Notes: generated by a model not told the origin, from the letters alone. Counted from the first letter of the stretch, positions 1 to 46,330 are shown. The stretch: 48,775 bases of DNA from Candidatus Kaiserbacteria bacterium (GCA_028286865.1 JAQBQU010000008.1:1-48775), one strand, 5' to 3'. Translations and numbers: made by a program.

Positions 1-3000
1 CGGTCGAGAATGAGAGTGGGCCGGTGACGGAGACCGATGAGAAGCCTCCTGCGCCGTTGCCGTAGAGGATAGATGAACCTGAGGTTGCCGGTGCGTAGTC
101 GGTACCGGAGACCGCTGCGATGAACGAGCCGCCGGTTGTCGTCTTCACCAAATTGCCGGATGCGATGGATGAGACCGTGAGGTTGGTGCTCGATGCGAGA
201 GTTGAGAACAAGTTGGTCGAGGTGAGAGCGGTCGATGATGCGGTCGAGAGCGTTGTCTGGCCTGCGACGGCGAGGGTGCCGGTCGCAGTCAAGTTGCCGC
301 CGATGTATGCGCTACCCGCGACTGAAAGTTTCGCGAATGGAGAGGTGGTGCCGACGCCGAGATTGCCTGAATTTCCGCTGAGCACTGCGCCGCTTGCACC
401 TCCTACCAAAAGATTGCTGTTAACTTGTGTATTGCCCTGCGATGTAAATCCGTTAACGACCAAATTACCTGATGCATTCGAAGCTGTGGTTCCTATCTGA
501 AGGATGCCTGCGCCATTGCGGGAGACAAATATATCGCCATTGAACCCGACTGCGCCCGATGAAGAAAGGTTGGCCGTACCGCCGATATACGCATTGCCCG
601 TCGTGGTAGCGCCGCCATTTACTGTGAGTCCGCCTGTCTGCGTTCCATCACCAATTGTCGATGAGCCGGTCGCGAAGAGCGACGGGGCCTTGAAGAGCGT
701 GCCGTTGAACGTGAGCGCTGTGCCGGAGGTGATGCGCGTACCGTCGAAGTAGTTCACGCCATTGGTGACCTGGGTACCCGTCGCGGTACCGCCCTGATTG
801 ATACCAAGGATGCCGGCGATCTCAGCGGCAGAAAGCGATGTGGTCGCGACGACATTGCCTGCTGCGTCGGTCGCGAGGTAGCTGTTGGTGATGCCGCCGA
901 GCTTGAGGGAGCCGACCGCTGCAGCCTGAGCGAAGAGATTCGTCGATGACGCAGTCGTAGCGAAGAAGTTGGTGGAGGTCGCATTCGCGAGCGTGGTGTT
1001 GCCTAAGAATGAGTTCACGCCGGAGAACGTGTTGTTGTCGACGAGGTGTGTCGATGATGCCGCGGTGATTACGATATTCGAGGTGCCGTCGAAGCTCGTA
1101 CCGTTGATGGTGCGTGCGTTCTGAAGCGCAGTAGCGGTTCCGGCATTGCCGCCGATCGAGAGTGATGCGGCAGTACCGGTGAGCCCGGTGCCGGCACCGG
1201 TGAACGATGAGGCGGTGAAGACACCGACGACCGTCGAGGATGCCTGGGAAATGAATCCGCTTCCGAAGGTCTGAAGCGGCAACCAGACATTTGCGAGAGT
1301 CGTCTTCGGGATCGTGGTGGACGCGTTGATCACCGCTTCGACGCGCGCGTTGGTGAAGTACTGATTTGACCCTTCGCGGAGCGCCGAAGTGGTCGTGCCC
1401 GCGAGGTCCGCCGCAAAAAGATTCGTGGAATAGTATTTGTTCACGGTCCCCTGTGCGAGCGCGTCGGTCGTGGTGCCGGCGATGACGGATGCGACGCGAT
1501 TGTTGGTGAAGTAGAGATTACTGCCTTCGGCAAGCGCAGTGGTGGTGGTACCCGCGATAACACCCGCCACTCTATTCGTAGTGAAGTAGAGATTCGACCC
1601 TTCGGCTACGAGTGACGTCGTGTAGTCGCTACCGGTCGGGACGACGACGCCGGTGCGTCCGTTGAACGAGGTGACGCCGGAACCGCCGAGCGCGTAGTCG
1701 GTGCCCGGTACCGCCGCTACCACATTACCTGCCGCGTCGGTCTTCAACAGAGTTGATGGAGTGCCCGTGATGGCAAAGCTCGTGGTCGTCGCATTCGCGA
1801 GGGTCGTGCTGCCGTTGAAAATATTTGCGCCCGAGAATGTGTTGTTGGTCGTGGTGCCGAATGCGCTCGAGATCGTGCCTGACGTGTTCACGAGCGGATA
1901 TGCGAACGAGAGAGCGGACTGCTTATTGTTGAAGGTATTGAAGTCGGCGAATGAAAGGTAGCCGGCGGTGCCGGTCGTTGCCTGCGAGATGGTGAAGACG
2001 CCGGTCGCGGAGTTGTATGAGAGCGGGCCCGTGGCTGAGAGGCTTGTGGATGAGACTTTGTTGTTGAAGGTGGTCCAATTCGATGATGAAAGGAAGCCGT
2101 TCTGCGCGCCGGTGGCGAGCTGGCCGGCGGTGTAGTCGATGGAGATGACGCCGGAGCCGTTGTCGTTGAAGTCGTTGGTGGCGAAGGTCGCCGCGCCCTT
2201 AGTAGCGGCATCGGCGGCGGCGTTGTTGATCGAGAGTGTGCCTGTCGAGAAGCTCAGCGGACCCGATACCGAGACCGACGAGAAACCGCCTGAGCCGTTG
2301 CCGTACAAGATAGATGAGCCGGTCGTCACGGGCGCGTAATCGGTTGATGCCGCGGCGGCAACGACCTGTCCGAGCGCATTGGTCTTGAGCAGTGTCCCGG
2401 TGACGCCGGTGATCGCAAGATTGGTCGAGGTCGCGGTGCCGACGGTCGTGAGTCCGCCGATCACGCTCGAAGATGCTTGAGAAACGAATCCGCCGGAGAG
2501 CGTCGAGAGGCCTGATGTATTCAATGTGTTCGAGAGGACAGTAGCACCGGTGACGGCAAATGCACCCTGCACGATCGCCTTGCCGGTCGTCGTCGCACCG
2601 CCGCTCACGGTGAGGCCGCCGGCCTGCGTGCCATTGCCGATCGTAGAAGAGGCATACACGGCGAAGCCGCTCGTGAATGTCTGGATCTGGCTCCAGGTAT
2701 TGGCTGTAGTGGTGCCGAATGCGAGCGAGAGATTGTTACCGGAGAAAAGGATCGGGTATGAGGCAGTGATCGGCGCCTGGAAATCGGTACCGGCAACGGC
2801 AGCGGTGAAAGCGCTCGCGCCGTTGCCCTTTACGAGGCCCGTGAGCGAATTCACCCCGGTGCCGCCGCTGCCGACCGCGAGCGCGTTCGTAAGATTGAGC
2901 GAATTCGCGTTGAGCGTCGAGGTGAAGGTCGATGATGCGCTCACGATGGTACCGATCGTCGTGGTCGGAGCGAGTGCGCCGCCGACGATCGACCAGGTCG

Positions 3001-6000
3001 AATTATTGGCGAGCGCCCCGGAGTTCACGTAATCCACGCCGGCGACCGCCGGAACTACTTGGCCCAAGGCGTTGGTCTTGAGAATGGTGCCGGCCACTCC
3101 CGTGATCGCAAGGCCGGAGGTGGTCGCGGTACCGGCGACCGAGAGCGACTGTCCGGCGACCGCGGCCGGGAATGTGTAGTTGCCCGCACCGAAGGTACCG
3201 CCGGTCGTCGTGATGACGCCTGTTCCGGAATTGTATGAAATGACACCCGTGCCGGAGATGGAGTTCGCTCCGAGCTTATTGTTGAACGTCGTCCAGTCGG
3301 TCGATGAGAGATAGCCGTCGTTGGTACTGCTCGCTTGTGAGATCGAGTACGTACCGGTGGTGCTGTTGAAATTCAGCGGGCCGGCGGCAAAGAGTGATGC
3401 GCGCACGCGCGCAGGAGTGAAGTACTGATTGGCGGTACCCTCGCGCAGTGCGTCTGTCGTCGTTGCGTACCAGTTCGCGAGCGAAAGATAGCTCGTCAGC
3501 GTCGATGGCGCGACGTAATCAGTTCCCGGTGTCGCCGCAACGACCGAGCCGTTTGCATTGGCTTTCAGGATCGCGTTGGTGAGATTCGTGATAGCAAAGC
3601 TCGTGGAGGTCGCATTCGCGAGTGTCGTTGCACCATTAAATGTGTTCGTGCCCGCGAACGTGTTGTTGGTCGTGGTAGAGAACGCGGTCGAGACCGTGGT
3701 GCCCGTGACAGAGAGCGGATAGGTGAAGGCGAGGACGTCCTGCTTATTGCCGAAGGTGGTCCAATCTGCGGCCGAGAGGTACCCGCCCTGCGTGCCGTTC
3801 GCCTGCTGTATGGAGAAGGTGCCGGTCGTACTGTTGTAGAGGACCGGAGCGGTCGCAGAAAGACTGTTGAGGGACAATTTGTTATTGAATGTGGTCCAAT
3901 CGCCGGCCGAGAGATAGCCGCCTTGTGAACCGCTCGCCTGGTCGATCGCAAGATTGTTGTTCACGAACGAGAGCGGCCCCGATACGGAGCTGATGCGGTT
4001 CTGGTATGCGCTCGTCCACTCGGTGGTCGATGCGGTGAGCGGGATCGTATAGCCGGCGGTGAGCGAGATAGCGCCGGTCGACGTGCTGTATGAAAGTCCT
4101 GCGGCCGCCGATGAGAGGGCGTTGCGGGCGCGGAGATTCGTGAAATAGAGGTTGTTCGTGCCTTCGTGCAATGCATCGGTCGTTGTTGCGTACCAATCAG
4201 TGAGCGCAAGGAAATTCAGAAGGAGCGGGCCGGTCACATAATCAGTACCCGATACTGCCGGGATCACATTACCGAATGCGTCGGTCTTGAGCAGTGATGA
4301 TGTGGCGTTCGTGATCGCGAGGCTGGTGGTTGTCGCAGCGACTCCATATATAGAGCCGCCGGTGATCGCGACGCTCGTAGCTGCCTGCGTGGCGATAGAT
4401 CCGAGCCCGAGATTTTGTCGCGCGTTGAGAGCGTTGTTCGCACCGGTACCGCCGCTTATGACAGCAAGCGCTGTACCGAGCGTGAGCGAGCCGCCGATAT
4501 AGCTGCTGCCCGTTGTTGTCGCGCCTCCATATATAGTGAGGCCGCCGTTTTGCGTACCGTTGCCGAACGTGGATGATGCACTGACCAAGACACCGAGCGT
4601 CGTGGTCGGTGTGAGAGCGCCATAGCGCATCATCCAGTTCTGGTCACTGGAGGACACTGCGCCGGTCGCATAGTCGACACCCGGGATCGCAGGTACGACC
4701 TGGCCCAAGGCGTTGGTCTTGAGGATGGTGCCCGGGACATTAATGATGGCAAGATCCGATGACGTCGCCGTCCCCGAAACCTTAAAGCCACCCGTCACCG
4801 TTGAATCCGCGCCTGCAGCAAATCCGCCGGTAAATGTAGAGGCGGAATCTACGATAAGCTCTGCGGTGTTATGAGTCGCAACGAAGTTTGCAGTTCCGGA
4901 GAATGTTGGGCTCGCTGAGAACACGACCGAGCCGGGAGTTCCGGTCTCATCGGTCAGGTATGCGGCGAGCTTCGCGGATGTATTAAGTGAGGTCGCATCG
5001 AGATAATCCGATCCTGCCACTGCTGCAAACACGAATCCGTTGGCATCCGTCCTCAAAAGCGACGATGTTGCGCTCGTTATCGCGAAGTTCGTCGTGGTCG
5101 CACCATTGAGACCGATCGTGAAGTTCGGAGAGAACATATAACCGCCGTTGCCGTCTCCGATCAGGAACTGGCCGTATGTCGGAGCGGTCGAGGTGCCGGT
5201 ACCGCCGCTCGCGATGCCAAGGGCCGTATCGAGGGTAAGCGAGCTCGAAGAGGCGCCCGCCGCGAAGACCTGCAGTGCATTCCATGTATTCGCGCTTGAA
5301 AAGTCTATAGAAAGGCTCCCCGAGGAAGTAACGCTGCCCGTAAGCCCGCCGGTTCCGGAGACGCTCGTGACCGAGCCGTTGCCTCCGCCGCCTCCGCCGC
5401 CGAAGGAGGCCGGGGGGATAGTGACCGAAATGATCGGATTGCTCGCAGTGCCGGTGATGGTCACATTGCTGCTCCCGGCCTTAATACCATTGACGACATT
5501 CGACGCAAAGATGCGTCCGCCCTGCAGGTCGATATCAGCGCCCGAGGTCGTGATGCCGCCGTTGGCCGCGATGGATCCGTCAAAGACAGAAGGTCCGGCG
5601 ACGAACACGCTCCCGGCGAGCCGCGCGGTTCCGGCGACAGCGAGCGAAGTCGTTCGCACCGCACCGGCAGAAATTCCTGCCGCCGTCAGCTGATCGGAGA
5701 ATGTCGCGGCGCCGTCGACCGACAACGTCTTCTTGATAGAAAGCGGAACACCGACTTCCATGACACCCGATGTGAAATCCGGTCGCGAGACCAGGGTGTT
5801 GCCGATGACGAGTTTGGCAGAATCATTTATCTGTACCGACGAGAGCGCGGCGGAAGCAGTATCTGAAAGTACGGTCGACGTCGCCGCGGATGCTTCCGCG
5901 ACCGATGCTGCGGCGAGATTTTTCGAAGAACCGTTTCCGCCTCGTACTGCCGAGACCACGGATCCGACATCCGCGAACAAATGATGTGCGTTGGTGGAAA

Positions 6001-6514
6001 TGCTGTTCGCGATCCCCTTGAAGGTGCCCGGGTTGATCATCGCAAAAGCAGTGACCGAGAAAAGGAGCGACGTCAGTATCACCGCCGGGAAGACCATGAT
6101 CGGACTCACTACTGCAGGCTGCTGCATGGCCCGCACTTTTTTCGCGACCGGAGTGCCAACGACCGGAGTCGCAGGGAACAAATTGTTCAGGTCGTGTACG
6201 ACCGGGACGGATGCAGAGAAGGCGACGTATGTACTGATAGGAGCAGCGGGTGCGCTCGATGCACGATTGCCCTGATATTCCTTGATCCGCTGATCGCGCA
6301 ATTCCTGGGCTTGTATCTTCTTCTCGCTCTCTCGCTTTGCGATATATGAGGTGAGCTTATCCGCCTCTACATACCATGTGTGCCCGATCAAACGACCGGG
6401 CACCTTCTCTTCGCGGCACAATCGCGAGATATAGTCGGACGATAATCCGAACAATGCACCCGCCTCCTTTGAGCCGACAAATCGCTTCCCCTCAATGAGA
6501 ATTTCGTTCGTCAT
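1..6514 (-). CDS. Giant repeat-rich surface/fibre-like membrane protein with N-terminal HTH domain (3' end outside window, >2170 aa)
   Basis: Translated by hand from ATG at 6514: MTNEILIEGKRFVGSKEAGALFGLSSDYISRLCREEKVPGRLIGHTWYVEADKL, then a TM segment (IMVFPAVILTSLLFSVTAFAMI), then T/S/G/A-rich repeats. The same frame still reads GTDYAPATSGSSILYGNGAGGFSSVSVTGPLSFST at base 2. The ORF track lists no stop-terminated ORF in this frame within 1-6514. Confidence 0.9.
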   Translation of the reverse strand, partial: MTNEILIEGKRFVGSKEAGALFGLSSDYISRLCREEKVPGRLIGHTWYVEADKLTSYIAKRESEKKIQAQELRDQRIKEYQGNRASSAPAAPISTYVAFSASVPVVHDLNNLFPATPVVGTPVAKKVRAMQQPAVVSPIMVFPAVILTSLLFSVTAFAMINPGTFKGIANSISTNAHHLFADVGSVVSAVRGGNGSSKNLAAASVAEASAATSTVLSDTASAALSSVQINDSAKLVIGNTLVSRPDFTSGVMEVGVPLSIKKTLSVDGAATFSDQLTAAGISAGAVRTTSLAVAGTARLAGSVFVAGPSVFDGSIAANGGITTSGADIDLQGGRIFASNVVNGIKAGSSNVTITGTASNPIISVTIPPASFGGGGGGGNGSVTSVSGTGGLTGSVTSSGSLSIDFSSANTWNALQVFAAGASSSSLTLDTALGIASGGTGTSTAPTYGQFLIGDGNGGYMFSPNFTIGLNGATTTNFAITSATSSLLRTDANGFVFAAVAGSDYLDATSLNTSAKLAAYLTDETGTPGSVVFSASPTFSGTANFVATHNTAELIVDSASTFTGGFAAGADSTVTGGFKVSGTATSSDLAIINVPGTILKTNALGQVVPAIPGVDYATGAVSSSDQNWMMRYGALTPTTTLGVLVSASSTFGNGTQNGGLTIYGGATTTGSSYIGGSLTLGTALAVISGGTGANNALNARQNLGLGSIATQAATSVAITGGSIYGVAATTTSLAITNATSSLLKTDAFGNVIPAVSGTDYVTGPLLLNFLALTDWYATTTDALHEGTNNLYFTNLRARNALSSAAAGLSYSTSTGAISLTAGYTIPLTASTTEWTSAYQNRISSVSGPLSFVNNNLAIDQASGSQGGYLSAGDWTTFNNKLSLNSLSATAPVLYNSTTGTFSIQQANGTQGGYLSAADWTTFGNKQDVLAFTYPLSVTGTTVSTAFSTTTNNTFAGTNTFNGATTLANATSTSFAITNLTNAILKANANGSVVAATPGTDYVAPSTLTSYLSLANWYATTTDALREGTANQYFTPARVRASLFAAGPLNFNSTTGTYSISQASSTNDGYLSSTDWTTFNNKLGANSISGTGVISYNSGTGVITTTGGTFGAGNYTFPAAVAGQSLSVAGTATTSGLAITGVAGTILKTNALGQVVPAVAGVDYVNSGALANNSTWSIVGGALAPTTTIGTIVSASSTFTSTLNANSLNLTNALAVGSGGTGVNSLTGLVKGNGASAFTAAVAGTDFQAPITASYPILFSGNNLSLAFGTTTANTWSQIQTFTSGFAVYASSTIGNGTQAGGLTVSGGATTTGKAIVQGAFAVTGATVLSNTLNTSGLSTLSGGFVSQASSSVIGGLTTVGTATSTNLAITGVTGTLLKTNALGQVVAAAASTDYAPVTTGSSILYGNGSGGFSSVSVSGPLSFSTGTLSINNAAADAATKGAATFATNDFNDNGSGVISIDYTAGQLATGAQNGFLSSSNWTTFNNKVSSTSLSATGPLSYNSATGVFTISQATTGTAGYLSFADFNTFNNKQSALSFAYPLVNTSGTISSAFGTTTNNTFSGANIFNGSTTLANATTTSFAITGTPSTLLKTDAAGNVVAAVPGTDYALGGSGVTSFNGRTGVVVPTGSDYTTSLVAEGSNLYFTTNRVAGVIAGTTTTALAEGSNLYFTNNRVASVIAGTTTDALAQGTVNKYYSTNLFAADLAGTTTSALREGSNQYFTNARVEAVINASTTIPKTTLANVWLPLQTFGSGFISQASSTVVGVFTASSFTGAGTGLTGTAASLSIGGNAGTATALQNARTINGTSFDGTSNIVITAASSTHLVDNNTFSGVNSFLGNTTLANATSTNFFATTASSTNLFAQAAAVGSLKLGGITNSYLATDAAGNVVATTSLSAAEIAGILGINQGGTATGTQVTNGVNYFDGTRITSGTALTFNGTLFKAPSLFATGSSTIGDGTQTGGLTVNGGATTTGNAYIGGTANLSSSGAVGFNGDIFVSRNGAGILQIGTTASNASGNLVVNGFTSQGNTQVNSNLLVGGASGAVLSGNSGNLGVGTTSPFAKLSVAGSAYIGGNLTATGTLAVAGQTTLSTASSTALTSTNLFSTLASSTNLTVSSIASGNLVKTTTGGSFIAAVSGTDYAPATSGSSILYGNGAGGFSSVSVTGPLSFST

Positions 6515-6882
6515 TTATGAAGTGAGTGGGGTCCAAAAAACGTATGAAGATTCGTTCATGCACGAAGTCGTATCAGCGAAATCGCTAGCGTTTGTTATGT
6601 TTTTCGTGCAAACGAACATATCAATAAGATATACATATTTTACTTCACGAAACGTACATGAAGATAAAATTTCCCCTCGTGTGGGGAGAACTATTGAAAA
6701 AAATTCCGCACGCGGAAAATATTTTATATGCACGAAAAAGCACTCGTTCTTCTAGCGGCAATTCACTACAGGGCATTTAAAACGCTCTCACGAGAACAAG
6801 TCCTGCGATCGCCCGAGGATCGCATCCACGAACATGCATTTTCTCACAGCACATCCGGATGTTGAGTTTTGGTACGGCATGT

Positions 6883-6943
6883 TCTCGGCATCCGAGATAT
6901 GCCTATAAAAGCTATATATTATGCGAATCTCGGATGCCCGAGA
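6883..6943. repeat. REP-like palindromic element, copy 1 (CTCGG..CCGAG family)
   Basis: 12-bp inverted repeat GGCATCCGAGAT (6887-6898) / ATCTCGGATGCC (6927-6938); each arm is itself part of a short palindrome; lies just downstream of the epsilon gene. Confidence 0.6.
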
Positions 6944-6952
6944 GTTGAGCTT

Positions 6953-9559
<2,607 letters not shown>

Positions 9560-9572
<13 letters not shown>

Positions 9573-11020
9573 ATTTTTTCAAAGACATCGTGTTTGGACC
9601 CCATAAGGCTCAGATATGCATCGAGCGGCATCCCTGCGCGCGCACCCGCGCGAAGCTCCTGCAGGTCCGGATCGTCTTCGATCGCTTTTCGCAGTTTTTC
9701 TTTATTGGTCACAAAAAATTCCACTTCTTTCTCTTCCAGGAAAGGTGTCAGCGTGAGCGCGACGAGCGGTACCTGCGCATCCGCAGGGATCGTGTCCCCC
9801 GGATTCTGCCGCAGTGCGTACTCGAGCATTTCGCCGAGTTTAAGCGCCGCGCGCACGTCGTCCTTCAGCTGCACGCTGAACTGCGAATATTCACGCTGCT
9901 GGCGGAATTTGCTGAGATGCAATCGCACGCGGGCCGAAAGCTGCTTTTGGGTCAGCGTCTGCGCCTGGCGACCCATACGTGTGACGGAGCGCTCTTCGTT
10001 GATGGCCGGGTAAATGCCCTGACCCTGGAGTTCCGGCACGAACATAAGGTGCCCGTCGGTACACGACATGAGGTTGGTCGGAATGATACTCGAAAAGTTC
10101 TGTGCCTCGGTCGCGACGACCGGGAGCGTTGTGATGGACCCGCCGCCGTGCTCTTTCACAAAAGTGCCGGAGCGCTCCATAAGGTGCGCCTGCTGATAGA
10201 AGAGATCTCCCGGATACGATTCTCTGCCCGGCAAGCGCTCTTCAAGGAGTGCAATTTCGCGCAGGTATTTCGCGTGCGCATCCAGGTCGTCGAGAATGAC
10301 GAGCACGTCTTTGCCCTGCTTCTGAAAATGCTCCGCGATCGCGAAGCCGACCGAGGGTGCTATCGCAATACGCGACGGCAGCTGGTCGGAAAGCGCAGCG
10401 ATGATCATCACTTTGGCACCTTCTTTACCGGTGAGTATCTCGCGCGAGACGCGCCCGAGCTCGCTCACGGATTTGCCGATGAGCACGTAGATGCTCACGA
10501 AATCCGCCGCTTTCTGGTGCCGCACGACGTCGATCAAAAAAGATGACTTACCCGCATGATCGCCGCCGAATATGAGCTGACGCTGACCGGTCGCAATGGG
10601 AAGCAGCGTGTCCACCAGGGTACACCCCGTGTAGAGCTGGTCTTTGACCGGAACGCGCAGCTCGATGCCGGGTGCATCCGCATCAAGAACGAGCGGGATA
10701 TCACCTACGGGAAATGACTTCCCCCCGTCGATCGGTTCGCCGAGCGAATTGATGACACGACCGAATAGATGATCGCCGAGGGCGAGCAGGTACGGCTCGC
10801 GCGGCAGCATGTATCGCGTGCCGGCGCGCACATAGACCGGATCAAGTGCTAACGCCATCACGTATGAATCCGAGAGCGACTGCACGAGTGCGCGATTGCC
10901 GTCCTTATCGACGATGATGTCGTTGATCTTCGCCGACGGTAGCCCTTCCACGAAGAATACGTACCGCTTCGCGCGGGTAACGAATCCGATCTCACGGGCT
11001 GTGGTGAGATCCGCCATCAT
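9560..11020 (-). CDS. atpA: F1-ATPase alpha subunit (divergent)
   Basis: GRVINSLGEPIDG, GQRQLIFGGDHAGKSS, PGRESYPGDLFY, GSITTLPVV, IPTNLMSCTDG, SVTRMG (arginine finger). Confidence 0.95.
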
Positions 11021-11535
11021 AGCTTTTGTACCAACGACAGTATCGCGGCGCGCTGCTTGTCGGCGAAGTATGAGAATGAAAAGTCATGGAACGTATTTTT
11101 GTATACGAAAGCGCACCCGCCGACGGCTTCGGGATCGATCTTGATATCGAGCAGGATATCCGGCTGCACTTGGGCACGGCACCATTCCCCGATGCGCTCT
11201 ATCTGCGAGAGCGCAAAATGCACCGGAATGTAAAGCGTCAATTTCGGCAATGAAGCCGCGAGAGACTTGAGCAGCTTGATGCGCTCGTACACATTTTTCT
11301 CCGTATAGAGATCAAGAACAGCGTCCCCCCATGCCGCTACCGCATGTGCATGCTGCACAGTTTCCGGGTCGCCTTGAGCGTAGAATGAGACGATCAGCTC
11401 CGCGCGCGACCCCGTTTTTGGCGTCGTTCCGAAAAAGAAATGCTCGAGAAAGGTCTGCAGAATATCCGCGCGCCGATGCAGATCGGATATGCAGAACGTA
11501 TTTTTCAGCACTGACGGAGGGATCACGTGTTCCAT
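11017..11535 (-). CDS. atpH: Delta/OSCP-like subunit
   Basis: C-terminal LLDIKIDPEAVGGCAFVYKNTFHDFS matches the delta signature (VDPxLIGG...DxS); occupies the atpH position; N-terminal half not recognisable. Confidence 0.75.
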   Translation of the reverse strand: MEHVIPPSVLKNTFCISDLHRRADILQTFLEHFFFGTTPKTGSRAELIVSFYAQGDPETVQHAHAVAAWGDAVLDLYTEKNVYERIKLLKSLAASLPKLTLYIPVHFALSQIERIGEWCRAQVQPDILLDIKIDPEAVGGCAFVYKNTFHDFSFSYFADKQRAAILSLVQKL

Positions 11536-11537
11536 AA

Positions 11538-12323
11538 TCAGATTATTCCCGCGGTGCGGGCTTCCTTGAGCGCATTGTCGACAAGCTCGGCGTGCTCATC
11601 CGGAGTGAGCGTCTTTCGCAGGACGACCTTGGAGGTCTCGGTGATGAGGTCCGCCATATGTTCATCCACCAGGCGCTTTCTCGCCTTCTGATATTCCGCC
11701 ACTTCGGCCTGAGCGGCCGCGAGCAGTTGGTCGATGCGTTCATCAATGCGCTTCTCACCCTTCCCCGAGACATCGTCGAAGGCTTTTTTGAAGCTCTCAG
11801 CCAGCGTGTGCGTACTTTCTTCCATGCCGCGGCGCATGTCGGCCATCTCTGCCTGACTTTGTTTGAAAAAATTATCGAGTTCCTGCTGCACGCGCTCCAT
11901 ACGCGTCTTGAGCTCCGCTCCCTGCGCCTCGATCTCGTGCGCGATGCTGATCGACAGTTCCGCTTGTGCGCTGTGTGCTTTCTCGCTGCTCTCGGTCATT
12001 GAATGCTTTGCTGCCGTCGCAAGCTCTTCCAGAGACTTCTGGTACGTCTGTGCGTGCGCCTCGATGTCGACTCGCTGTTTTTCGATCAGTGCGGATACGG
12101 ACTGCTGCGCCTGAGCCATCATCGTACGCGCCGCCTCATGCGCCTCATTGACGATGTGATCCGCTTCGGCCTGGGATTGCGAGCGCGCATATTCGTAGAG
12201 CGGCTGAGTGAGCCGTTGCACGCGCATCCCCGTTATCACCTGGAGCACGAGGAGGACGATGAGCCCGATGACAAGACCGAGAGCCAGAGCGATGACGGTC
12301 GCGGCAGATAGTGAAGTGATCAT
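11538..12323 (-). CDS. atpF: Subunit b-like peripheral stalk protein, elongated (261 aa)
   Basis: Single N-terminal TM, long A/E/Q/K-rich coiled coil, b-type C-terminus (MADLITETSKVVLRKTLTPDEHAELVDNALKE); occupies the atpF position. Confidence 0.75.
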   Translation of the reverse strand: MITSLSAATVIALALGLVIGLIVLLVLQVITGMRVQRLTQPLYEYARSQSQAEADHIVNEAHEAARTMMAQAQQSVSALIEKQRVDIEAHAQTYQKSLEELATAAKHSMTESSEKAHSAQAELSISIAHEIEAQGAELKTRMERVQQELDNFFKQSQAEMADMRRGMEESTHTLAESFKKAFDDVSGKGEKRIDERIDQLLAAAQAEVAEYQKARKRLVDEHMADLITETSKVVLRKTLTPDEHAELVDNALKEARTAGII

Positions 12324-12362
12324 AATAATTTATATTCGAGTAATAATAACGTTATTTTTTGC

Positions 12363-14027
12363 TCAACCGGCGAAAAGCACGATCATGGCTGCGAATAATC
12401 CGGCGCTCGCGATCGCAAGTGTCAGAACCGCATTGAATACGACCATCGATTGTATCGATGATTTCGCGCGCGGATTGCGGCCCATAGAAATAACCCCGTA
12501 GTTGGCGTCCGACATAAAGCTCTTGAACGCGAGCGTGAGAGTAAGGGCCGCGATCACACCCGAGAGCAGGTAGCGCACGAGCGCGCGGACCACCTGCATG
12601 TCGATGGAGCCTGAGACCCGACATGAGAGCGATGTACATGTTTGCTCCGCTGAACTTTGACCGGGCGCTGATGCGCCGATGGTCACGTTCACCTTGATCG
12701 TGCCAGATGCAAGCTTCGTACCATCCGGCGCATCGAGCACGACTCCCCCGGTTGCAAATGGCTCAGCTGCGGTCCCCACGATATGCTCGCCGTCCTTTGC
12801 GCGGCGCGCTTTCCCGGGTATCGACGATGTCGTGAGCAGGTCTCCGACTGCGATCGGTCCGTTCTCGAGGGTCACGTTCATAAGTGTAGGACCTGAGCGC
12901 GTCACCGAAATATTCGACGCCTCGTCCGGCTTGAAAACAAGCGCCGGATCTTCCGCCACGACCCCGTATGCGGCAGCATCGTTGGCACCATGTGCGAGCG
13001 TATAGAGCTTCGTATCGGGATCATACGAAATGATATCGCCGTATGCCACGGTATTTCCCGAGAATTTGACCGCGATAGCGACCGGCTGTGTGAATCCCAC
13101 CGGCTCGGATGCGGTCGGTGTTTGCGCTGACGCTGCAGCAGCGACCTGTGCTTGCGCGACCGGTAGAACAGCGACCGGCTGAGGCTCCGCGGGCTGTACA
13201 GTTGCGATCGCGGCACTCGCGGCCATTGACGGTTCTCGTGACTGAGCGAGCGGCATCGATATACGAGATGCCAGCGCAAGAGCGGAGCGGTACGAAGAAT
13301 CGATCGTGCTCTGTATGCCCACTACCGCTATTGAGGGATCTTGAGCAAATTTTCCTAAGGCTACGCTCATAGCAGCGCTTGCGGTCGAAGCGCCGCTGCT
13401 CACATGCAAGGCACTTATCTCGACGCTCGCAACACCCGCGCGCGCCGAATCATATGTCATGCGGGCGAAGACCGGGTCGAAGAGAGAATACGTGCCCAGT
13501 ACGAGGACGAGCGCAAACGCCAATGCCACTACGCGATGGATCATGTCCATCGCCGGCGTGACGACGTGCGTCGGCATGTGAGCCATGGCCTGAGCGGGTA
13601 TCTGTGCGGCCGCCTGAAGCATACCGGGCATGCGGGCCCCTTCTGAGAGCGAGGAAAGTGCACCTCCGGCCGGCTCAAGTACGCGACGGACCTGCTCGCG
13701 GGCCGCAGATACACTCGGCATGTGATCAGATTCTGCCGCGATGATATCAGCGAAGGCCTTTTGCGCCTGCACACCACGCTTTGCGTCGTATTCATTTGCT
13801 CGCTGGCGCGCAAGATCCTTGCGACGAAACTCGTTGGCGTGTTCTTGGGCAAGGATATACGCCTTGATCGATGCCACATTCACGTACCAGCCGCTTTCCT
13901 CCCGTCGCGCATCAAGTATCTTCTTTCTGCAGAGTCTCGAAAGGTAGTCGTGCGACAAATTTGTTTCCAACGCGGCACGACGAAGAGAAGCATATGTGAT
14001 CCCATCAAATTTGATCTCTTCTGACAT
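12363..14027 (-). CDS. Fusion protein: HTH + TM + extracellular fibre-associated domain + ATP synthase c-like hairpin
   Basis: N-terminal HTH (DYLSRLCRKK...WYV); TM VVALAFALVLVLGTYSLF; domain with GDIIS...YGVV...ENGPIAVGDLLTTSSIPGKA...IVGTAAE; two C-terminal hydrophobic helices joined by ISMGRNPRAK; occupies the atpE position. Confidence 0.8.
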   Translation of the reverse strand: MSEEIKFDGITYASLRRAALETNLSHDYLSRLCRKKILDARREESGWYVNVASIKAYILAQEHANEFRRKDLARQRANEYDAKRGVQAQKAFADIIAAESDHMPSVSAAREQVRRVLEPAGGALSSLSEGARMPGMLQAAAQIPAQAMAHMPTHVVTPAMDMIHRVVALAFALVLVLGTYSLFDPVFARMTYDSARAGVASVEISALHVSSGASTASAAMSVALGKFAQDPSIAVVGIQSTIDSSYRSALALASRISMPLAQSREPSMAASAAIATVQPAEPQPVAVLPVAQAQVAAAASAQTPTASEPVGFTQPVAIAVKFSGNTVAYGDIISYDPDTKLYTLAHGANDAAAYGVVAEDPALVFKPDEASNISVTRSGPTLMNVTLENGPIAVGDLLTTSSIPGKARRAKDGEHIVGTAAEPFATGGVVLDAPDGTKLASGTIKVNVTIGASAPGQSSAEQTCTSLSCRVSGSIDMQVVRALVRYLLSGVIAALTLTLAFKSFMSDANYGVISMGRNPRAKSSIQSMVVFNAVLTLAIASAGLFAAMIVLFAG

Positions 14028-14175
14028 AGTTAAAAGGACGACTTATCTATGATAATACTAGACATTCCGACTATTTGATGTGAGATCGCTAAAACATAAT
14101 GGGGATAACAGATAGAAAACTTTTCACAGAAAAAAATCTATAAAAAAGGATCACAACTTCCGGCCGGCACCGACC

Positions 14176-14207
14176 AAAAAAAGAAAAAAGCGGCTCATCG
14201 CCGCTTT
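14176..14207 (-). terminator. Intrinsic terminator after the tandem-HTH gene
   Basis: Stem AAAGCGGC/GCCGCTTT followed by a long T tract on the minus strand, about 18 nt after the stop at 14225. Confidence 0.75.
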
Positions 14208-14224
14208 CTCCCGGAACTTTGTGT

Positions 14225-15139
14225 TTATTTACGCACGTAGGTCATCTCAGGAGCGACCATATTCTCTAAAACATCACCCATTCTCCCGACCGCTGCCCCC
14301 GCGCTTGCCGTAAGTGCGTTCTTGGTCACCGAATTCATGCTCTTGGTAAAGTTGAACGTGTATGTGGACTGCTTCTTAAGCGTTACAAAGCCATACGAAA
14401 GCACGATAACGAACGTAAGCGCTACCCCCGCACCAATGGCTCTAGATATAGTGATATCGGACGTTTTAGCCTTTGGTGCCACGTAAGCGACCGGTCGCTG
14501 TGGTGTCATTGTCGTCAGGCGTGGAGCTGTGCGGACCACGCGTATCGGAATATTGTATTGCTCTCTGAGCTCGTCCTGGACGGGATCAGGCTTTCTATCC
14601 ATCTTCGGCATGAGTTCACGGGTATCGGCCGTGTAATTGAAAAGCGGTGATGATGGCATCGGCGATTCAGCCGGCTTCGGCAGCATAAGCCCTACGGCCT
14701 CCGACTGAACGGCCGCGAGCATCGAGTCCTTCTGAGACTTGTGAGCCAGAAGTCCCTCGCGTTCAATGTACCAGCGGTTGCCGATCTGACGCGAGAGGAT
14801 CTTACCGCCACGCGCGAGCTGCCCGATGTAATCCTGGTTATAAGAGGTTAATTTCGCTGCTCGGGATGCCGAGATGTAATCTTTGCCGTCAAAAGAGACG
14901 ATCGAGTCGATATCAGATGCCTGCTTCGGCGCAGGTACCATCGGTTTATACTGTTCCGCGTTCTTTTGGTATGCGTTCAATGAATCGAGCGATACATACC
15001 ATAGGCCGCCGACACGCTGCGCATCAATGAGCCCGCCGCGGGCGAGTTGCCCGATATAGTCCTGTGCGTAGCCTGTTGAGACGGCCGCCTGCTTGGAGGA
15101 CATGTAGTTCTTGCCTTCGAGAAAGAGCTCATCTGCCAT
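14225..15139 (-). CDS. Membrane protein with two tandem Xis/MerR-like HTH domains
   Basis: Two repeats of GKxY(M/I)SxxxAAxxTxYxQDYIGQLARGGxIxxxxxGxxWY, a Pro-rich linker and one TM (AIGAGVALTFVIVLSYGFV). Confidence 0.85.
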   Translation of the reverse strand: MADELFLEGKNYMSSKQAAVSTGYAQDYIGQLARGGLIDAQRVGGLWYVSLDSLNAYQKNAEQYKPMVPAPKQASDIDSIVSFDGKDYISASRAAKLTSYNQDYIGQLARGGKILSRQIGNRWYIEREGLLAHKSQKDSMLAAVQSEAVGLMLPKPAESPMPSSPLFNYTADTRELMPKMDRKPDPVQDELREQYNIPIRVVRTAPRLTTMTPQRPVAYVAPKAKTSDITISRAIGAGVALTFVIVLSYGFVTLKKQSTYTFNFTKSMNSVTKNALTASAGAAVGRMGDVLENMVAPEMTYVRK

Positions 15140-20300: not shown

Positions 20301-22529
20301 TTACTGAAGCTTCACCGTCCCCGCCTGGATCTGCTGTATGAGCGGGTCTGCTTGTGCCGCGACCGTCGGATCCTGTTTCTTTGCAGCCTCAAGTGCCGCT
20401 ATGGCAAGCTGCTTGTTCCCCACTTGATACTCAAGTGCCGCAAGTGTGAAATACGCCTGCATATCGCTCGGTGTCGCACTGATATGTGCTTGCCAGATGG
20501 TGATCGCTTTCGCATATAGCTTTCGGCTGACGTACGCTCCAAGGATGCGTTGATCAGCAGCCGTATCGTTCGCGATCGCAGGAGCGAGCAGCTGGTCGGC
20601 GAGCGAGTCCTCTGCGAGCTGTATCGCCACGGTAGCGTACAGGAGTCGTGCCTGGGAATCGGACGTATCGAGTTCGAACGCCGTCTTGAATGCCGTCAGT
20701 GCTCCGGCATTATCCCCTCTCGCGAGTGCGGTCTGTCCGATCTGGAAGTAGATGGTCTGCTTGCGCGGCGACAATTCATGCGCTTTCTCGAGCGCAGCCG
20801 CAGCATTGGCCGCATCACCGAACGATGAATAGATGATGCCGAGGAATAGCGGAAACCGCGCGTCGAGGGGTGAATCCACCGCCTGCTGTTGCATCTCGGT
20901 GAGGGCAAGCTGATAGAACTGCTGCTTGGTGTCTGTCGCGATCGTCGTGGCAGCAGCTATCTGGGATGCCCCCTGCGCAAGCTGTTCGCGTACCTCCTGG
21001 GTCCCGAATGATCCATAGGCGCTCGCCTGTTTGAAGTAGGTGAGGTTGACCGACGGATTCGATTGCGGAGCAATTGCCTTGAGGAGGGTCATGTTCTGTG
21101 CGATCGCGTTGCCGTTAACCATCCAAAGCGCGCCGGCGGTAAGTATCGCAGCACCAAGTGCGGCATATGGGAGCATTTCGGAGTTCAGTATGTCATTGCT
21201 TGGGACCGCAGGGGCGGCTTCGTGCGAAGCACTGCGCCACGCGATGTATGCCAGGATCGTCCCGAACCATATGTAGCTGGTCACGTTGTCGAATACCGTG
21301 AGGTTGTGGATGAAATATCCCGCAAGCAGACCGGTGAGGATACTCCCCTCCGCTACAGAGAATGCGCGCGCTCCTTTCGTATCGCGGCGCCAGATCGCCC
21401 ACACGGTCACGAAAAATATCGAGAGGTACGCAAGAAGTCCGAGGGTGCCTCCTGCGATCCACCAATCGAAGATGATATTGTGCACACGGTCGAACCACGG
21501 CTCCTGCGCATACATGCGCGGGTCATAGTATTTGTCGAAGACGATCGCGTAATTCTCCTGACCCCAGCCGAAGACCGGGCGCTCTTTCACACCCTGAAGC
21601 GCGATACCCATATTGAGGAAGCGCGCATTGATCGTGTTATCACTCAGCGAGATGCTCGCCAGGCGATCAAGGAAGCCGATACTTTTAACCGCCGCGGTAT
21701 CCTTCGCGAGCTTCAAGCCCCCGCCGAGTACCGCAAGTACGATAAGCGTCACGACGGTGTAAGTGCGTACCTGCTTCGTCCCCTGAACGACCGCATATAT
21801 AAGCAGGGCAAGCACGCCGCCGCCGATAAGGCCGAGCATGGTACCGCGGGTACCTGTAAAGAAGAGTGCCGCCGTGTCGAGGACGATCACCGCTCCATAC
21901 CAATAAGAAAGTGCAGTGTTCTTGCCCTGCGGTGCCTGCCGCTGCTGCGCCCACAAAAGCGCGGCGACGAAGATATTGAAGAGCATGTATATCGCCAAGT
22001 AGATCGGATTGCCGAACGTGGCGTCAATGCGAGCGGAAAGTCCGGAGACACCGCCTTCGCCGAGCGCCACTTTGCCGAGTATCTGAAAGAGACCGTCTAC
22101 TGTGAGGAATACCGATATGACGAGAGAGAGCTGAAAGAGACGACGCCAGAGGAGTTCTGTTCTCATCACACTCGCGGCGACAACGGTGTACATGAGCAAA
22201 TGCCCGATCGTCACCCACCCGTCCATGCGTTCAAAGTTGCTCCAAAAGCTTTTGAACGGGTTCACGCCCTGCGCATCCGCTATCGCCATGATGAGCACGA
22301 AGATGGCAAACGCGCCGAGGATCCATGAACGCTGCGGGCGGTATTGTGAAGATACCAATGCCAGTGCGAGCCACGCACCCGTTATGATCTCCACGATGAT
22401 GCGGAAAGCGAAGTTCTTACCGGTAATGTAGGGAAAGAAGAGCGATGTCGTGACTAAAAGACAGACGAACGGGAGCAAGAATATGCCTCCGAGAACGATA
22501 TATCGCAGGGTCTTTTCGAGTGAATTCAT
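20301..22529 (-). CDS. O-antigen ligase (Wzy_C) family membrane protein with C-terminal TPRs
   Basis: About 12 TM segments; RIDATFGNPIYLA, TGTRG, RPVFGWGQENY, DRVHN motifs; helical TPR-like C-terminus. Confidence 0.88.
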   Translation of the reverse strand: MNSLEKTLRYIVLGGIFLLPFVCLLVTTSLFFPYITGKNFAFRIIVEIITGAWLALALVSSQYRPQRSWILGAFAIFVLIMAIADAQGVNPFKSFWSNFERMDGWVTIGHLLMYTVVAASVMRTELLWRRLFQLSLVISVFLTVDGLFQILGKVALGEGGVSGLSARIDATFGNPIYLAIYMLFNIFVAALLWAQQRQAPQGKNTALSYWYGAVIVLDTAALFFTGTRGTMLGLIGGGVLALLIYAVVQGTKQVRTYTVVTLIVLAVLGGGLKLAKDTAAVKSIGFLDRLASISLSDNTINARFLNMGIALQGVKERPVFGWGQENYAIVFDKYYDPRMYAQEPWFDRVHNIIFDWWIAGGTLGLLAYLSIFFVTVWAIWRRDTKGARAFSVAEGSILTGLLAGYFIHNLTVFDNVTSYIWFGTILAYIAWRSASHEAAPAVPSNDILNSEMLPYAALGAAILTAGALWMVNGNAIAQNMTLLKAIAPQSNPSVNLTYFKQASAYGSFGTQEVREQLAQGASQIAAATTIATDTKQQFYQLALTEMQQQAVDSPLDARFPLFLGIIYSSFGDAANAAAALEKAHELSPRKQTIYFQIGQTALARGDNAGALTAFKTAFELDTSDSQARLLYATVAIQLAEDSLADQLLAPAIANDTAADQRILGAYVSRKLYAKAITIWQAHISATPSDMQAYFTLAALEYQVGNKQLAIAALEAAKKQDPTVAAQADPLIQQIQAGTVKLQ

Positions 22530-44779: not shown

Positions 44780-46252
44780 CTACTCTGCTTCCGGGCTTTC
44801 TTCAACAATGTCCCACTCGCTCGCTTTCATTCGGCGCGTCATCATGGCTGCCGCGCCGAGTATCCCGACGAGACCAACGACACCGACATACCAATACCAA
44901 TGCCCGCTCGTGGATCCTGCTGCAGCTGCCAATTGCGACGACGGAGCCTGCTCGCTCGAGGTGGTCGCGCTATCTGTTTCGGCCTTTTGCTCGCTTACCG
45001 CTGTTTCTGCCGAAGCAGTATCTTGCACTTGCTCCTCGGCAGCGGAAGTCGTGGCGATCGCTGTCGCGGGCATGGCTGCCGTTGCTATCGGGGCTTGTGC
45101 GGTCGCAACGGGTTCGGCGGGGGTACTTTCATTTGCCTTGAGCGCAAGGACGCCGTTGGGATAATCGAGTTCGGTGTCGGGACCGGAGTAAAATCCGAGC
45201 GTTGGTTGCGCAATACGAAGTGTTGCGCCTTTGAGCAGGATCGAGTGTTCGGGCAGAATAAAATTCCGGGCGAACGATCGCACGACCCATCGCGATAGAT
45301 CGAGATTGTGTCCGGCGCTGTTGCCGATCGAGATACTGCCGTCGGCATTGGTCGTGTAGGTGAGCTTTGCCGGCTCGGCATCCACGGTCAGTACATCCTC
45401 CACCGCCGTCTTATTCTGTGCGATCGAAAGCACGACCGCATACCGCCCCGGATAATCGTAGTGATGCATCACGGTCGCCCCCTCGGCGGTCGAGCCGTCG
45501 CCGAAATTCCACATGAATCGCACGCGATCAAGATCCTGGTCATTGCGATCATATGCACGGCCGTCGAATTCGGCATCCGCTCCGACGATCACCGTCCGAT
45601 CACCTCCCGCATCGGCAAACACCGTCGGGACCGGCGGTGGCACATACGAAGAGACCGTTGTATTGGTAGTTGAAGTCTGGGTCGTAGTTGTAGAAGTACT
45701 CGTAGAACTATCGGCAACCACCGGCACCGCTGCTACGGTCGCATTGGCGGCATTCGGTGTCGGCAACGCCATGATCCATGTGCCCGCATTATTCTGTAGA
45801 CTATTGCCGTCACCGTTACCGCCCTGGTCCTTCGTATAGCTCACGGTCGAAACCACGGCGCCCGTGTCGTTAGTGAGCGAAATGGTGCCCGAGAGGTTCG
45901 AGAGGCTCAGCACAGTATCGATGACGGTGCCCGTCACTGCCGAATGTGACGCGAGAAAGTTGGTCGCGTTATCGACGAGAAGCGCATAGCCGCCGGGAGC
46001 GATCGTGATTGAGCCCGCACCCCCGTTTTTCGGCGGAACATTGAACGTATGTGCTGAGCCGTCATTGATCTTCCACTTGGTGAGATCGACGGCAGTACTG
46101 CCGGTATTCAAAAGCTCGACGTACTCCTGATCGGTGTCAGTACCGGGCGCATCGTAAAGAAATTCATTGATGATGACGTCCGCTGAAACCAAAGCAGGCG
46201 CGCAGAGCGTGAAGAGAACGACGAGAACGCTTGTTGTTTTTGGAGTGAGCAT
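44780..46252 (-). CDS. Surface protein with lamin-tail and PKD domains and a C-terminal TM anchor
   Basis: Signal peptide, IINEFLYDAPGTD..EYVELLN..VDL..W, WNFGDGS...HHYDYPGRY, Ala/Thr linker, C-terminal hydrophobic helix. Confidence 0.85.
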   Translation of the reverse strand: MLTPKTTSVLVVLFTLCAPALVSADVIINEFLYDAPGTDTDQEYVELLNTGSTAVDLTKWKINDGSAHTFNVPPKNGGAGSITIAPGGYALLVDNATNFLASHSAVTGTVIDTVLSLSNLSGTISLTNDTGAVVSTVSYTKDQGGNGDGNSLQNNAGTWIMALPTPNAANATVAAVPVVADSSTSTSTTTTQTSTTNTTVSSYVPPPVPTVFADAGGDRTVIVGADAEFDGRAYDRNDQDLDRVRFMWNFGDGSTAEGATVMHHYDYPGRYAVVLSIAQNKTAVEDVLTVDAEPAKLTYTTNADGSISIGNSAGHNLDLSRWVVRSFARNFILPEHSILLKGATLRIAQPTLGFYSGPDTELDYPNGVLALKANESTPAEPVATAQAPIATAAMPATAIATTSAAEEQVQDTASAETAVSEQKAETDSATTSSEQAPSSQLAAAAGSTSGHWYWYVGVVGLVGILGAAAMMTRRMKASEWDIVEESPEAE

Positions 46253-46330
46253 GACCCCGCAAGCACACGCCATTATTATAGTGACTTCTCTTATTTCATG
46301 AAGGGCGCCGCCGCGCGAATTGGGGATATC

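Follow-up and report, generated by a model that had tools for sequence, protein, structure and literature searches.

An F1-like operon with a carboxylate-free c-subunit fusion, encoded beside giant surface proteins in Candidatus Kaiserbacteria and other Patescibacteria

The DNA considered here, which we will call the window, is a stretch of 48,775 nucleotides (nt) from a Candidatus Kaiserbacteria bacterium (contig C2, positions 1-48775; GCA_028286865.1, JAQBQU010000008.1), and positions are given in window coordinates unless another locus is named. The genome measures 871 kb in 21 contigs, is 90% complete, and has its nearest named relatives among the metagenome-assembled genomes (MAGs) of Paceibacterota/Kaiserbacteria. 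At 6953-14027 on the minus strand lies an F1-like operon with genes for a c-like fusion protein, b-like and delta-like proteins, alpha, gamma, beta, and a short epsilon. The operon carries no subunit a, its c-like subunit has no carboxylate at the ion-binding position, and it adjoins a gene for a giant surface protein; we describe it as a candidate for an ATPase that is uncoupled from ions and works on the cell surface. A first-pass annotation of the window, made from the sequence alone, had proposed something similar, namely an ATP-consuming machine, not a synthase, that passes torque to an extracellular domain.

Layout of the operon and its gene products

In the direction of transcription, the operon begins with the c-like fusion (12363-14027; 554 residues) and continues with a b-like peripheral-stalk protein (11538-12323; 261 residues), a delta/OSCP-like protein (11017-11535; 172 residues), the alpha-like subunit (9560-11020; 486 residues), the gamma-like subunit (8712-9572; 286 residues), the beta-like catalytic subunit (7222-8715; 497 residues), and the epsilon-like subunit (6953-7225; 90 residues). 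The genes are tightly packed: 39 nt separate the c-like and b-like genes and 2 nt the b-like and delta-like genes, and there are overlaps of 4 nt (delta-like and alpha), 13 nt (alpha and gamma), 4 nt (gamma and beta), and 4 nt (beta and epsilon). The open reading frames (ORFs) and their spacing therefore bear out the first-pass description of an operon in canonical atp order with overlapping or abutting genes. The same annotation placed a terminator between the operon and the gene upstream, and an intrinsic-terminator-like hairpin is indeed present on the minus strand at 14212-14182 (13 pairs, 6 of them GC, a loop of 5, and a T-run). Terminators were called by consensus scan only, and transmembrane (TM) segments, here and below, by a crude sliding measure of hydropathy.

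Homologues of alpha, beta, gamma, and epsilon (by Pfam), of delta and c (by profile), and, weakly, of b are found together in this one operon. The Pfam matches are PF00006 (9.1e-59) and PF00306 (3.3e-9) for alpha, PF00231 (4.5e-27) for gamma, PF00006 (1.1e-58) for beta, and PF02823 (3.5e-11, residues 11-88) for epsilon. All four fall below the NCBIfam equivalog cut-offs, with beta at 427.5 bits against 462.85 (TIGR01039), alpha at 355.2 against 554 and 308.8 against 484.45, gamma at 79 against 194.45 (TIGR01146), and epsilon at 41.8 against 67.25 (TIGR01216).

The claim that the catalytic machinery is retained held up on alignment to E. coli. Beta keeps the Walker A motif GGAGVGKT, the Glu of GERTRE, and the Walker B Asp, and alpha keeps the P-loop GDHAGKS and the Arg of S-V-T-R-M-G; we take the aligned residues to have their usual roles as catalytic Glu, Walker B Asp, and Arg finger. 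There are also departures from the canonical subunits. In beta, DELSEED is replaced by EELSQQN and there is a 12-residue insertion, the N-terminus of alpha is about 14 residues shorter than the canonical one, and the epsilon-like protein consists of the beta-sandwich domain without the C-terminal helices, though the genome's canonical epsilon is also short (84 residues). In other F-ATPases, these helices inhibit hydrolysis, as stated in the accessible text of a recent preprint (10.64898/2026.10.01.756066). One side observation concerns alpha in genome G028 (L020:8000-9457), where the P-loop Lys is lost (GPMNSGIT in place of the window's GDHAGKS); the non-catalytic nucleotide site may be dispensable in the family.

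The c-like, b-like, and delta-like proteins match no Pfam or NCBIfam family in single-sequence searches, and profiles built from their orthologues were needed. When the delta-like family profile is run against the PDB, delta/OSCP chains top the list (best 6n2y_I, the Bacillus PS3 delta, 2.6e-7); only the C-terminal domain of delta/OSCP is recognizable, and the orthologue from G028 has a weak PF00213 match (E 0.027). The b-like protein has one TM segment (residues 9-27) followed by a long coiled coil, and is about 100 residues longer than the genome's canonical b (149 residues). Its family profile finds E. coli b at 2.9e-6, but among apolipoprotein and other coiled-coil matches, as coiled-coil bias would produce, so that architecture and position count for as much as sequence in its identification as b, which is a weak one.

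From its N-terminus, the c-like fusion comprises a cytoplasmic helix-turn-helix (HTH) module (residues 1-64; 13836-14027, aligned with the other HTH copies of the locus), a TM anchor (residues 166-184), a linker rich in Ala, Ser, and Pro, an extracellular beta-rich domain (residues ~325-460; 12648-13055, found with a domain hidden Markov model, HMM), and a C-terminal c-subunit-like hairpin (residues 478-554; 12366-12596). The hairpin consists of TM1 (residues 483-501), an invariant G516-R-N-P519 loop, and TM2 (residues 533-551 by hydropathy) with Asn532 and, at the carboxylate position, Leu537. Its relationship to subunit c was seen in three kinds of search. By BLASTP, the last 80 residues match the genome's own subunit c (E 2e-5), with G-R-N-P aligned on G-R-N-P and the canonical Glu paired with Leu537; a profile of 48 hairpins run against the PDB gave ten matches, all ten of them ATP synthase c subunits (best 7.2e-6); and hhalign of the hairpin against 18 canonical c subunits of the candidate phyla radiation (CPR) gave 95.6% probability (E 1.3e-8), the aligned part being the loop and helix 2. 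PF00137 is above cut-off (27.7 bits) on a 664-residue member of the family. In public databases these proteins are annotated as 'hypothetical protein', apart from three JGI entries labelled 'ATP synthase membrane subunit c'.

A typical family member is shorter, at about 270 residues; it opens with a signal peptide, continues with the beta-rich domain (conserved, about 135 residues) and a variable linker, and ends in the hairpin, with a positively charged loop, GRNP(L/R)AK. The cytoplasmic HTH and TM anchor replace the signal peptide in the window form and its closest relatives (about 500-585 residues) and nowhere else. The HTH on the c fusion is a trait of these closest relatives, not a core feature of the family. 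The N-terminus of canonical c subunits faces outward; the signal peptide and the order of domains likewise place the beta-rich domain outside the cell, on the N-terminus of the hairpin. This domain matches PF23982 (XM1_gp53_minor_capsid) in 15 of 50 family members scanned singly with Pfam (best 1.9e-6) and Phage_cement_2 in two of the 50, and one relative carries a precomputed Peptidase_G2 annotation. Its neighbours in the ESM Atlas are C-terminal modules of fibre and tailspike proteins, which with TM-scores of 0.47-0.55 and a model pLDDT (predicted local distance difference test) of 0.57 should be taken as a lead only. Such leads suggest an oligomerizing decoration-type fold related to phage decoration and minor-capsid proteins.

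Loss of ion coupling, distribution, and lineage

Proton or sodium coupling requires both subunit a and the Asp or Glu of the c-ring. As the first-pass annotation had stated, the operon contains no subunit a, and the matches to PF00119 and PF00137 in the genome are confined to contig C13. That contig holds the second operon one would want to see, a complete canonical set in the order a-c-b-delta-alpha-gamma-(inserted genes)-beta-epsilon, with a carboxylate-bearing c. The interval between gamma and beta in this canonical operon (L021, G000:C13, 6888-8243) holds extra ORFs that look by eye like a Nudix hydrolase and a HAM1/RdgB-type NTP pyrophosphatase.

The absence of the carboxylate, which had also been claimed for the window's hairpin, extends to the family. 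Counting from the Gly of GRNP, Asp and Glu are missing altogether from positions 12-36 in 266 of 273 distinct hairpins, and not one of the 273 carries either residue at the canonical position 22, as against all 19 canonical c subunits compared (18 from CPR and that of E. coli). Position 17, which is Asn532 in the window (12432-12434) and lies five residues cytoplasm-ward of the canonical site, is Asn in 231 of the 273; six hairpins have Asp or Glu there, and a seventh has Glu at position 16. With subunit a missing and the carboxylate replaced by Leu, ion coupling would not be possible, and since the catalytic residues are retained, the complex looks like a competent ATPase that neither drives nor is driven by an ion gradient and is predicted to hydrolyze ATP.

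This is not a peculiarity of one genome. In an exhaustive search with HMMER, the family came to 1881 representative clusters at E<=1e-3, or 379 at the stricter E<=1e-10, and the window protein is the top-scoring member of both family profiles (A1 and A3). We examined 80 loci from named MAGs, which cover Kaiser-, Davies-, Ames-, Levy-, Pace-, and Andersenbacteria, WWE3, and Saccharimonadales. Several MAG records have organism names that seem untrustworthy ('uncultured Gammaproteobacteria/Pseudomonadales'), and these names were disregarded. Where at least 6.5 kb of downstream sequence was present (59 loci), the c-like gene is followed on its 3' side by alpha in 57, gamma in 56, beta in 57, and epsilon in 49. 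Exactly two ORFs separate the c-like gene from alpha in 53 of 68 loci, and in 51 these have the sizes of b-like and delta-like genes. No canonical a or c was matched within ~10 kb in any of the 80 c-fusion loci. The neighbourhood is therefore conserved across Patescibacteria, as had been predicted, with its carboxylate-less c fusion, its lack of subunit a, and the adjacent fibre-like giants described below. Two loci depart from the usual order: in G257 (L131, C1:512000-526000) the c-like gene follows beta (alpha-gamma-beta-c-like), and in G284 (L140, C1:1045000-1054600) it stands directly before alpha, with no b- or delta-sized ORFs between them.

For an estimate of prevalence, we used 401 genomes that form an even sample of the phylum Patescibacteria, including one unpublished genome (G194) on which no individual claim depends. 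A c-like hairpin fused to a larger protein is present in at least 66 of the 401, among the matches listed. The larger tallies of 215 and 205 of the 401 are not counts of the system, as they include hits to the extracellular domain only and cross-hits to canonical c. Among the 65 carriers besides the window genome, a normal subunit a is encoded as well in 43, in every case at a different locus, and 22 have no PF00119 match over the cut-off. One carrier without subunit a, G062, encodes a 188-residue protein with two PF00137 domains (C1:442858-443280) that looks like the doubled c of V/A-type enzymes, and this genome may combine a V/A-type ATPase with the c-fusion operon.

G390, G237, and G284 are each a closed genome on a single contig and 95-99% complete. 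In these, the sole alpha/beta pair adjoins the c-like gene, there is no canonical c, and PF00119 finds nothing even at E<=1. Since the operon is the only F-type set in some genomes, it is not merely an accessory second copy. One might suppose that the complex borrows subunit a from a canonical operon, but the existence of carriers without any subunit a rules this out. Among close relatives of the window genome the distribution is patchy, with the operon in 3 of 41: the window genome itself, one congener (beta 79% identical), and one member of another family (61%), in which the same cluster is again followed by TM-anchored fibre-like proteins.

The beta subunits were compared in a quick IQ-TREE analysis (LG+G4) of 90 betas rooted with 10 alphas; the initial set had 108 betas, from which 18 were removed for sharing at least 80% identity with one that was retained. 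Canonical betas, including that of E. coli, form one clade of 16 rows (Shimodaira-Hasegawa-like approximate likelihood ratio test, SH-aLRT, 100); 13 of these are linked to a subunit a, and L010, L011, and L013 are labelled canonical by similarity only. The window beta belongs to a separate clade of 63 rows (support 96), all of them c-fusion-linked; a second c-fusion clade has 9 rows (support 95), and two betas from operons with 664- and 2568-residue fusions adjoin the canonical clade (support 99). A topology that places the window beta among canonical CPR betas is worse by 330.8 log-likelihood units and is rejected by the approximately unbiased (AU) test (p-AU 5e-33), which agrees with the first-pass expectation that it would fall outside them. 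An 'ancient paralogue' status for the c-fusion beta is not shown by this tree.

Giant surface proteins and neighbouring genes

After a gap of 438 nt with terminator-like hairpins at 6717-6704, 6690-6671, and 6687-6672 (minus strand), epsilon is followed by the giant gene (2-6514, minus strand), an ORF of more than 2171 residues interrupted by the end of the contig. Its product begins with an HTH module (residues 1-64; PF12728, E 0.0026) and a TM segment (residues 134-152), and continues as a repetitive extracellular region with recurring motifs, rich in Thr, Ala, Gly, Ser, and Asn (T 15, A 13.3, G 12.6, and S 12.5%). On the other side of the operon, the gene at 14225-15139 (minus strand) encodes a membrane protein of 304 residues with two tandem HTH_17/excisionase-like modules (residues 1-64 and ~80-140; PF12728 in two stretches, E 1.4e-8; TIGR01764 at 27.4 bits, below its cut-off of 28.8) and then a TM segment (residues 234-252). 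Homologous HTH-TM genes are present upstream in related loci.

That these three proteins share an N-terminal HTH followed by a TM segment had been noticed in the first-pass annotation, and alignment upholds it for the window; what does not carry over to the family at large is the HTH on the c fusion. The module occurs in four copies in the genome, all in this locus, and the only matches returned by searches with PHROGs were of excisionase type, apart from a weak one to a family whose function is not known. The role of the module could be to dock the ATPase, to regulate in the manner of ToxR, or to tether DNA.

Giant proteins recur beside the operon. In 40 of 78 loci, one of the nearest flanking ORFs has at least 600 residues and one or two TM-like segments, and the TM segment usually lies 100-190 residues from the N-terminus. 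When the whole locus is considered, 48 of 80 c-fusion loci contain such an ORF, but only 1 of 17 canonical atp loci of comparable length does, a comparison in which relatives are not independent of each other. In the first 150 residues of the giant neighbours, that of the window included, HTH_17 is matched in 27 of 42 and MerR in 18 of 42. The extracellular domain of the c-like protein itself recurs across the phylum in giant ORFs of 1000-6900 residues, four of them neighbours of the operon.

In other lineages the two kinds of protein are one: the carboxylate-free hairpin forms the C-terminus of NHL/Ig-like proteins of 664 to ~2590 residues. The examples are L102 (G421:C1:84000-103900), L103 (G045:C8), and L104 (G356:C4), where hairpin-ended proteins are either NHL/Ig-like with 2568-2589 residues or Ig-like with 664, and the operons continue with b-, delta-, and alpha-like genes. 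In G421, a second giant (Kelch/fn3, 2420 residues) and what appear by eye to be an ABC ATPase and a permease come before the b-, delta-, and alpha-like genes.

Several other genes near the operon deserve mention. A secA gene lies near the locus. Five kb upstream of the cluster, at 20301-22529 (minus strand), a 742-residue multi-TM protein combines a Wzy_C (O-antigen-ligase-like) domain with TPR. In other clades, multi-TM/TPR proteins adjoin the operon: a rough TM count puts them in 13 of 78 loci, and tblastn gives a match in 11 of 80; the TPR tails are confirmed by Pfam in three (L020:3214-5757, L079:10613-12895, and L074:9549-11948). These proteins may glycosylate the Ser/Thr-rich giants. They were considered as a hidden subunit a and ruled out, given their Wzy_C/TPR features and their position outside the operon. 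Further along, 23087-44770 holds a surface-glycan cluster (seven ORFs scanned) with a Polysacc_synt flippase-type protein, group-1 glycosyltransferases, a DegT aminotransferase, and GDP-mannose-dehydratase-type epimerases, and at 44780-46273 (minus strand) there is a 497-residue protein with a Lamin Tail Domain (1.2e-23) and PKD, probably another surface protein.

Comparison with known systems and interpretation

With the canonical F1Fo enzyme (atpBEFHAGDC) the operon shares its subunit families, the order c, b, delta, alpha, gamma, beta, epsilon, the catalytic residues of beta, the Arg finger of alpha, and a CPR-type GRNP loop in c. It differs in having no subunit a and no carboxylate in c, in the extracellular domain borne by the c-like protein, in a b-like protein about 100 residues longer, and in F1 subunits that score under the equivalog cut-offs, with a beta outside the canonical clade. 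Like the N-ATPases, it is a second, divergent F-type operon alongside a canonical one, but on the N-ATPase models (TIGR03305/TIGR03324) the window proteins fall far short, beta reaching 390.7 where 752 is required and alpha 301.6 where 750.5 is, and the operon's order is not that given for N-ATPases in the first-pass annotation, atpDCQRBEFAG with a subunit a. N-ATPases also retain an ion-binding c. Their operons begin with beta and epsilon and have two extra small membrane genes, according to the accessible text of the preprint (10.64898/2026.10.01.756066).

In its working, the system would appear closest to the F1-like ATPases of mycoplasmas, namely Type 2 (gliding in M. mobile) and Type 3 ('F1-like X0', associated with MIB-MIP), although by the models it is not a member of their families. 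Those, too, are additional F1-like sets (alpha, beta, gamma, and epsilon) in a bacterium that has a reduced genome and depends on a host; their genes lie next to those of surface proteins, and a function at the surface requires them. By HMM score, however, the window proteins reach 329 for MSC_0618 (cut-off 570), 189.8 for MSC_0619 (520), 353 for MMOB1670 (850), and 276 for MMOB1660 (600), the exception models being NF045858, NF045863, NF045934, and NF045936. The CPR system retains recognizable c, b, and delta in canonical order, and has neither a 12-TM subunit nor MIB-MIP genes. The mycoplasma X0 protein has a signal peptide together with a pair of C-terminal TM segments, as far as the accessible text of PMC12994834 describes it, an architecture shared with the c-like family.

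From these comparisons and from the gene content, we lean towards a family of F-type-ATPase-derived complexes, specific to Patescibacteria, that would be driven by ATP, uncoupled from ions, and at work on the cell surface. The head and shaft would be an alpha3beta3-gamma-epsilon assembly with intact catalytic residues, the peripheral stalk would consist of the membrane-anchored, long-coiled-coil b-like protein and the delta/OSCP-like protein, and the c-like hairpins would make up a ring in the membrane. The GRNP loop of the hairpin, present in canonical CPR c subunits too, would be cytoplasmic, and in the textbook F-ATPase this loop contacts gamma and epsilon. As the outward N-terminus of the hairpin bears the beta-rich domain, the ring would display a crown of decoration-like domains on the cell surface. 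The head would hydrolyze ATP from fermentation, and gamma, epsilon, and the c-like ring would turn against the stalk. The output would be mechanical work outside the cell, on the crown and on the HTH-bearing, single-pass giant fibre proteins encoded next to the operon, and could serve to move, tension, wind, or remodel fibres for attachment to a host or a surface.

Not all parts of this picture are equally firm. That the complex is not an ion-coupled ATP synthase, both subunit a and the carboxylate having been lost, and that it is linked to an extracellular domain and to surface proteins, is well supported, as had been claimed. What we infer is that the hairpins form a ring, that the complex hydrolyzes ATP and rotates, and that it is physically coupled to the fibres. 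The version in which a true rotary motor has an external output, with the crown of the carboxylate-free ring, or the fused proteins of ~2500 residues, turning, winding, or drilling with the giant adhesive fibres, is one that we put forward tentatively and would not bet on. A predicted complex of gamma, epsilon, and four c-like hairpins had a median score of 0.13 (mark 0.32), which speaks neither for nor against binding. A look-up of sequencing runs that cover 6953-14027 yielded no RNA run and one DNA run, which may be the source of the stretch. Taken as a whole, the first-pass interpretation is partly supported, in that it holds as far as the sequence reaches; for its central step, the transmission of torque to the outside of the cell, we can only infer.

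A number of observations count against a surface motor or complicate it, and the researcher should keep them in mind. The near-invariant Asn of TM2 could mean that this helix has another polar function. In hhalign, the hairpin's first helix fails to align with canonical c, and it has no GxGxGxG packing motif. Without subunit a, the sole membrane anchor of the stator is the single TM segment of the b-like protein, and because the N-terminus of alpha is shortened and the N-terminal domain of delta unrecognizable, the contact between stalk and head may differ from the canonical one. Gene order varies, as in G257 and G284. The tree was a quick one, and fast-evolving sequences can drift rootward, so it may exaggerate the depth of the split. 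Finally, the HTH modules suggest DNA binding, and a purely mechanical model leaves this unaccounted for.

Could the head be an ATPase that turns nothing? The c-like hairpins would then form a static platform, and the F1-like head would serve in assembly, export, or unfolding, much as FliH/FliI/FliJ do, or would anchor the giants. The FliH-FliI-FliJ complex and its type III secretion system (T3SS) counterparts are F1 relatives that serve a surface appendage instead of energy conversion, and flagellar export ATPases derive from truncated F-type operons, according to the accessible text of the preprint (10.64898/2026.10.01.756066). The conserved linkage to giant single-pass proteins, the stator with its single-TM anchor, and the ABC ATPase and permease seen by eye inside the operon of one lineage would all suit such a function, and the beta-like subunit does score 175-186 bits on FliI/T3SS models. 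Those scores are nevertheless far under the cut-offs and under the F-type scores (window proteins 175-187 bits against 380-715; best 186.3 against 619.1, and the subfamily model 175.5 against 379.5), and the flagellar complex is a homohexamer with no alpha/beta pairs and no c-ring. A static platform has no obvious need of the full rotor set (gamma, epsilon, and the c-like loop) and stalk that are retained here, and the giants have ordinary N-terminal TM anchors and a secA nearby; we consider this explanation unlikely. It is a good deal less probable that the complex still translocates ions, as ATPase or synthase, by way of the Asn/Asp site in TM2 and an unrecognized substitute for subunit a. 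The Asn at position 17 in 231 of 273 hairpins, with Asp or Glu in seven (one Glu being a residue earlier), is what one would point to, as are the frequency of multi-TM neighbours with TPR tails and the fact that genomes with this operon as their only rotary ATPase would otherwise have no ATP-driven ion pump. Yet the carboxylate is found at its canonical position in none of the hairpins, the operon has no conserved multi-TM gene (only b- and delta-sized ORFs stand between c-like and alpha in 53 of 68 loci), and PF00119 draws a blank at E<=1 in the three closed genomes. The multi-TM neighbours, with their Wzy_C/TPR features, look like typical glycan enzymes and often lie on the opposite strand, and the coexistence of a normal a/c operon in 43 of 65 carriers argues for a different job.

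The HTH modules are the basis of a further alternative, in which the MerR/excisionase-type fold binds DNA and the complex is a DNA-related machine or a membrane-tethered regulator, for uptake, tethering, or ToxR-like signalling. ToxR-type regulators have the order HTH, TM, and extracellular domain. HTH_17/MerR modules at the cytoplasmic N-terminus of 27 of 42 giants, of the 304-residue protein (two copies), and of the c-like fusion, together with their confinement to this one locus of the genome, fit that idea, but the majority of c-like proteins carry a signal peptide and lack the HTH, 15 of the 42 giants have no HTH_17 match, Pfam and NCBIfam find nothing else related to DNA in the operon, and an HTH fold is not in itself proof of DNA binding. 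We give this little credence, and less again to the notion that the operon is a duplicated atp set in decay, without any function of its own. Decay would account for F1 subunits that all score below the NCBIfam equivalog cut-offs, for the patchy presence among close relatives (3 of 41 genomes), and for the lost P-loop Lys of alpha in G028. It is hard to reconcile with intact, tightly coupled reading frames, conserved catalytic residues, 1881 representative clusters, synteny across classes, and three closed genomes in which this is the only F-type set, and we regard it as scarcely credible.

We found no description of a c-fusion-linked F1-like operon in the literature; the supplementary figures of the preprint from October 2026 (10.64898/2026.10.01.756066) may show such operons. 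In its accessible text, that preprint reports CPR beta homologues in unusual gene neighbourhoods, F-ATPases that it calls 'basal', and operons that are truncated and have no known function, and these basal or truncated operons probably overlap the c-fusion family; the accessible main text makes no mention of a fused c, of the carboxylate's absence, of genomes that lack subunit a, or of the giants. In ProAD (PMC11738941), incomplete subunit sets in Patescibacteria are, in the part of the paper accessible to us, put down largely to genome incompleteness. Surveys that count alpha and beta, or that explain a missing a or c by incompleteness, would misclassify carriers of the operon.

If the tentative version, a rotary motor with its output outside the cell, is true, the ultra-small, host-dependent Patescibacteria would have an ATP-powered organelle for attachment or motility, and the lineages with this operon as their only rotary ATPase would have no ion-coupled ATP synthase. 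An ATP-driven, ion-uncoupled surface complex of this kind would be the third case in which F1 has been taken over for a job at the surface, independent of the two mycoplasma systems and far more widespread. Because c, b, and delta are retained, unlike in mycoplasmas, the step away from an ion-driven rotor would be directly readable in the sequence. A c-ring that carries a protein crown outside the membrane would be a new structural idea for rotary ATPases, and the system would tie a defined motor to the giant surface proteins typical of epibionts, giving a handle on how these bacteria attach to their hosts.

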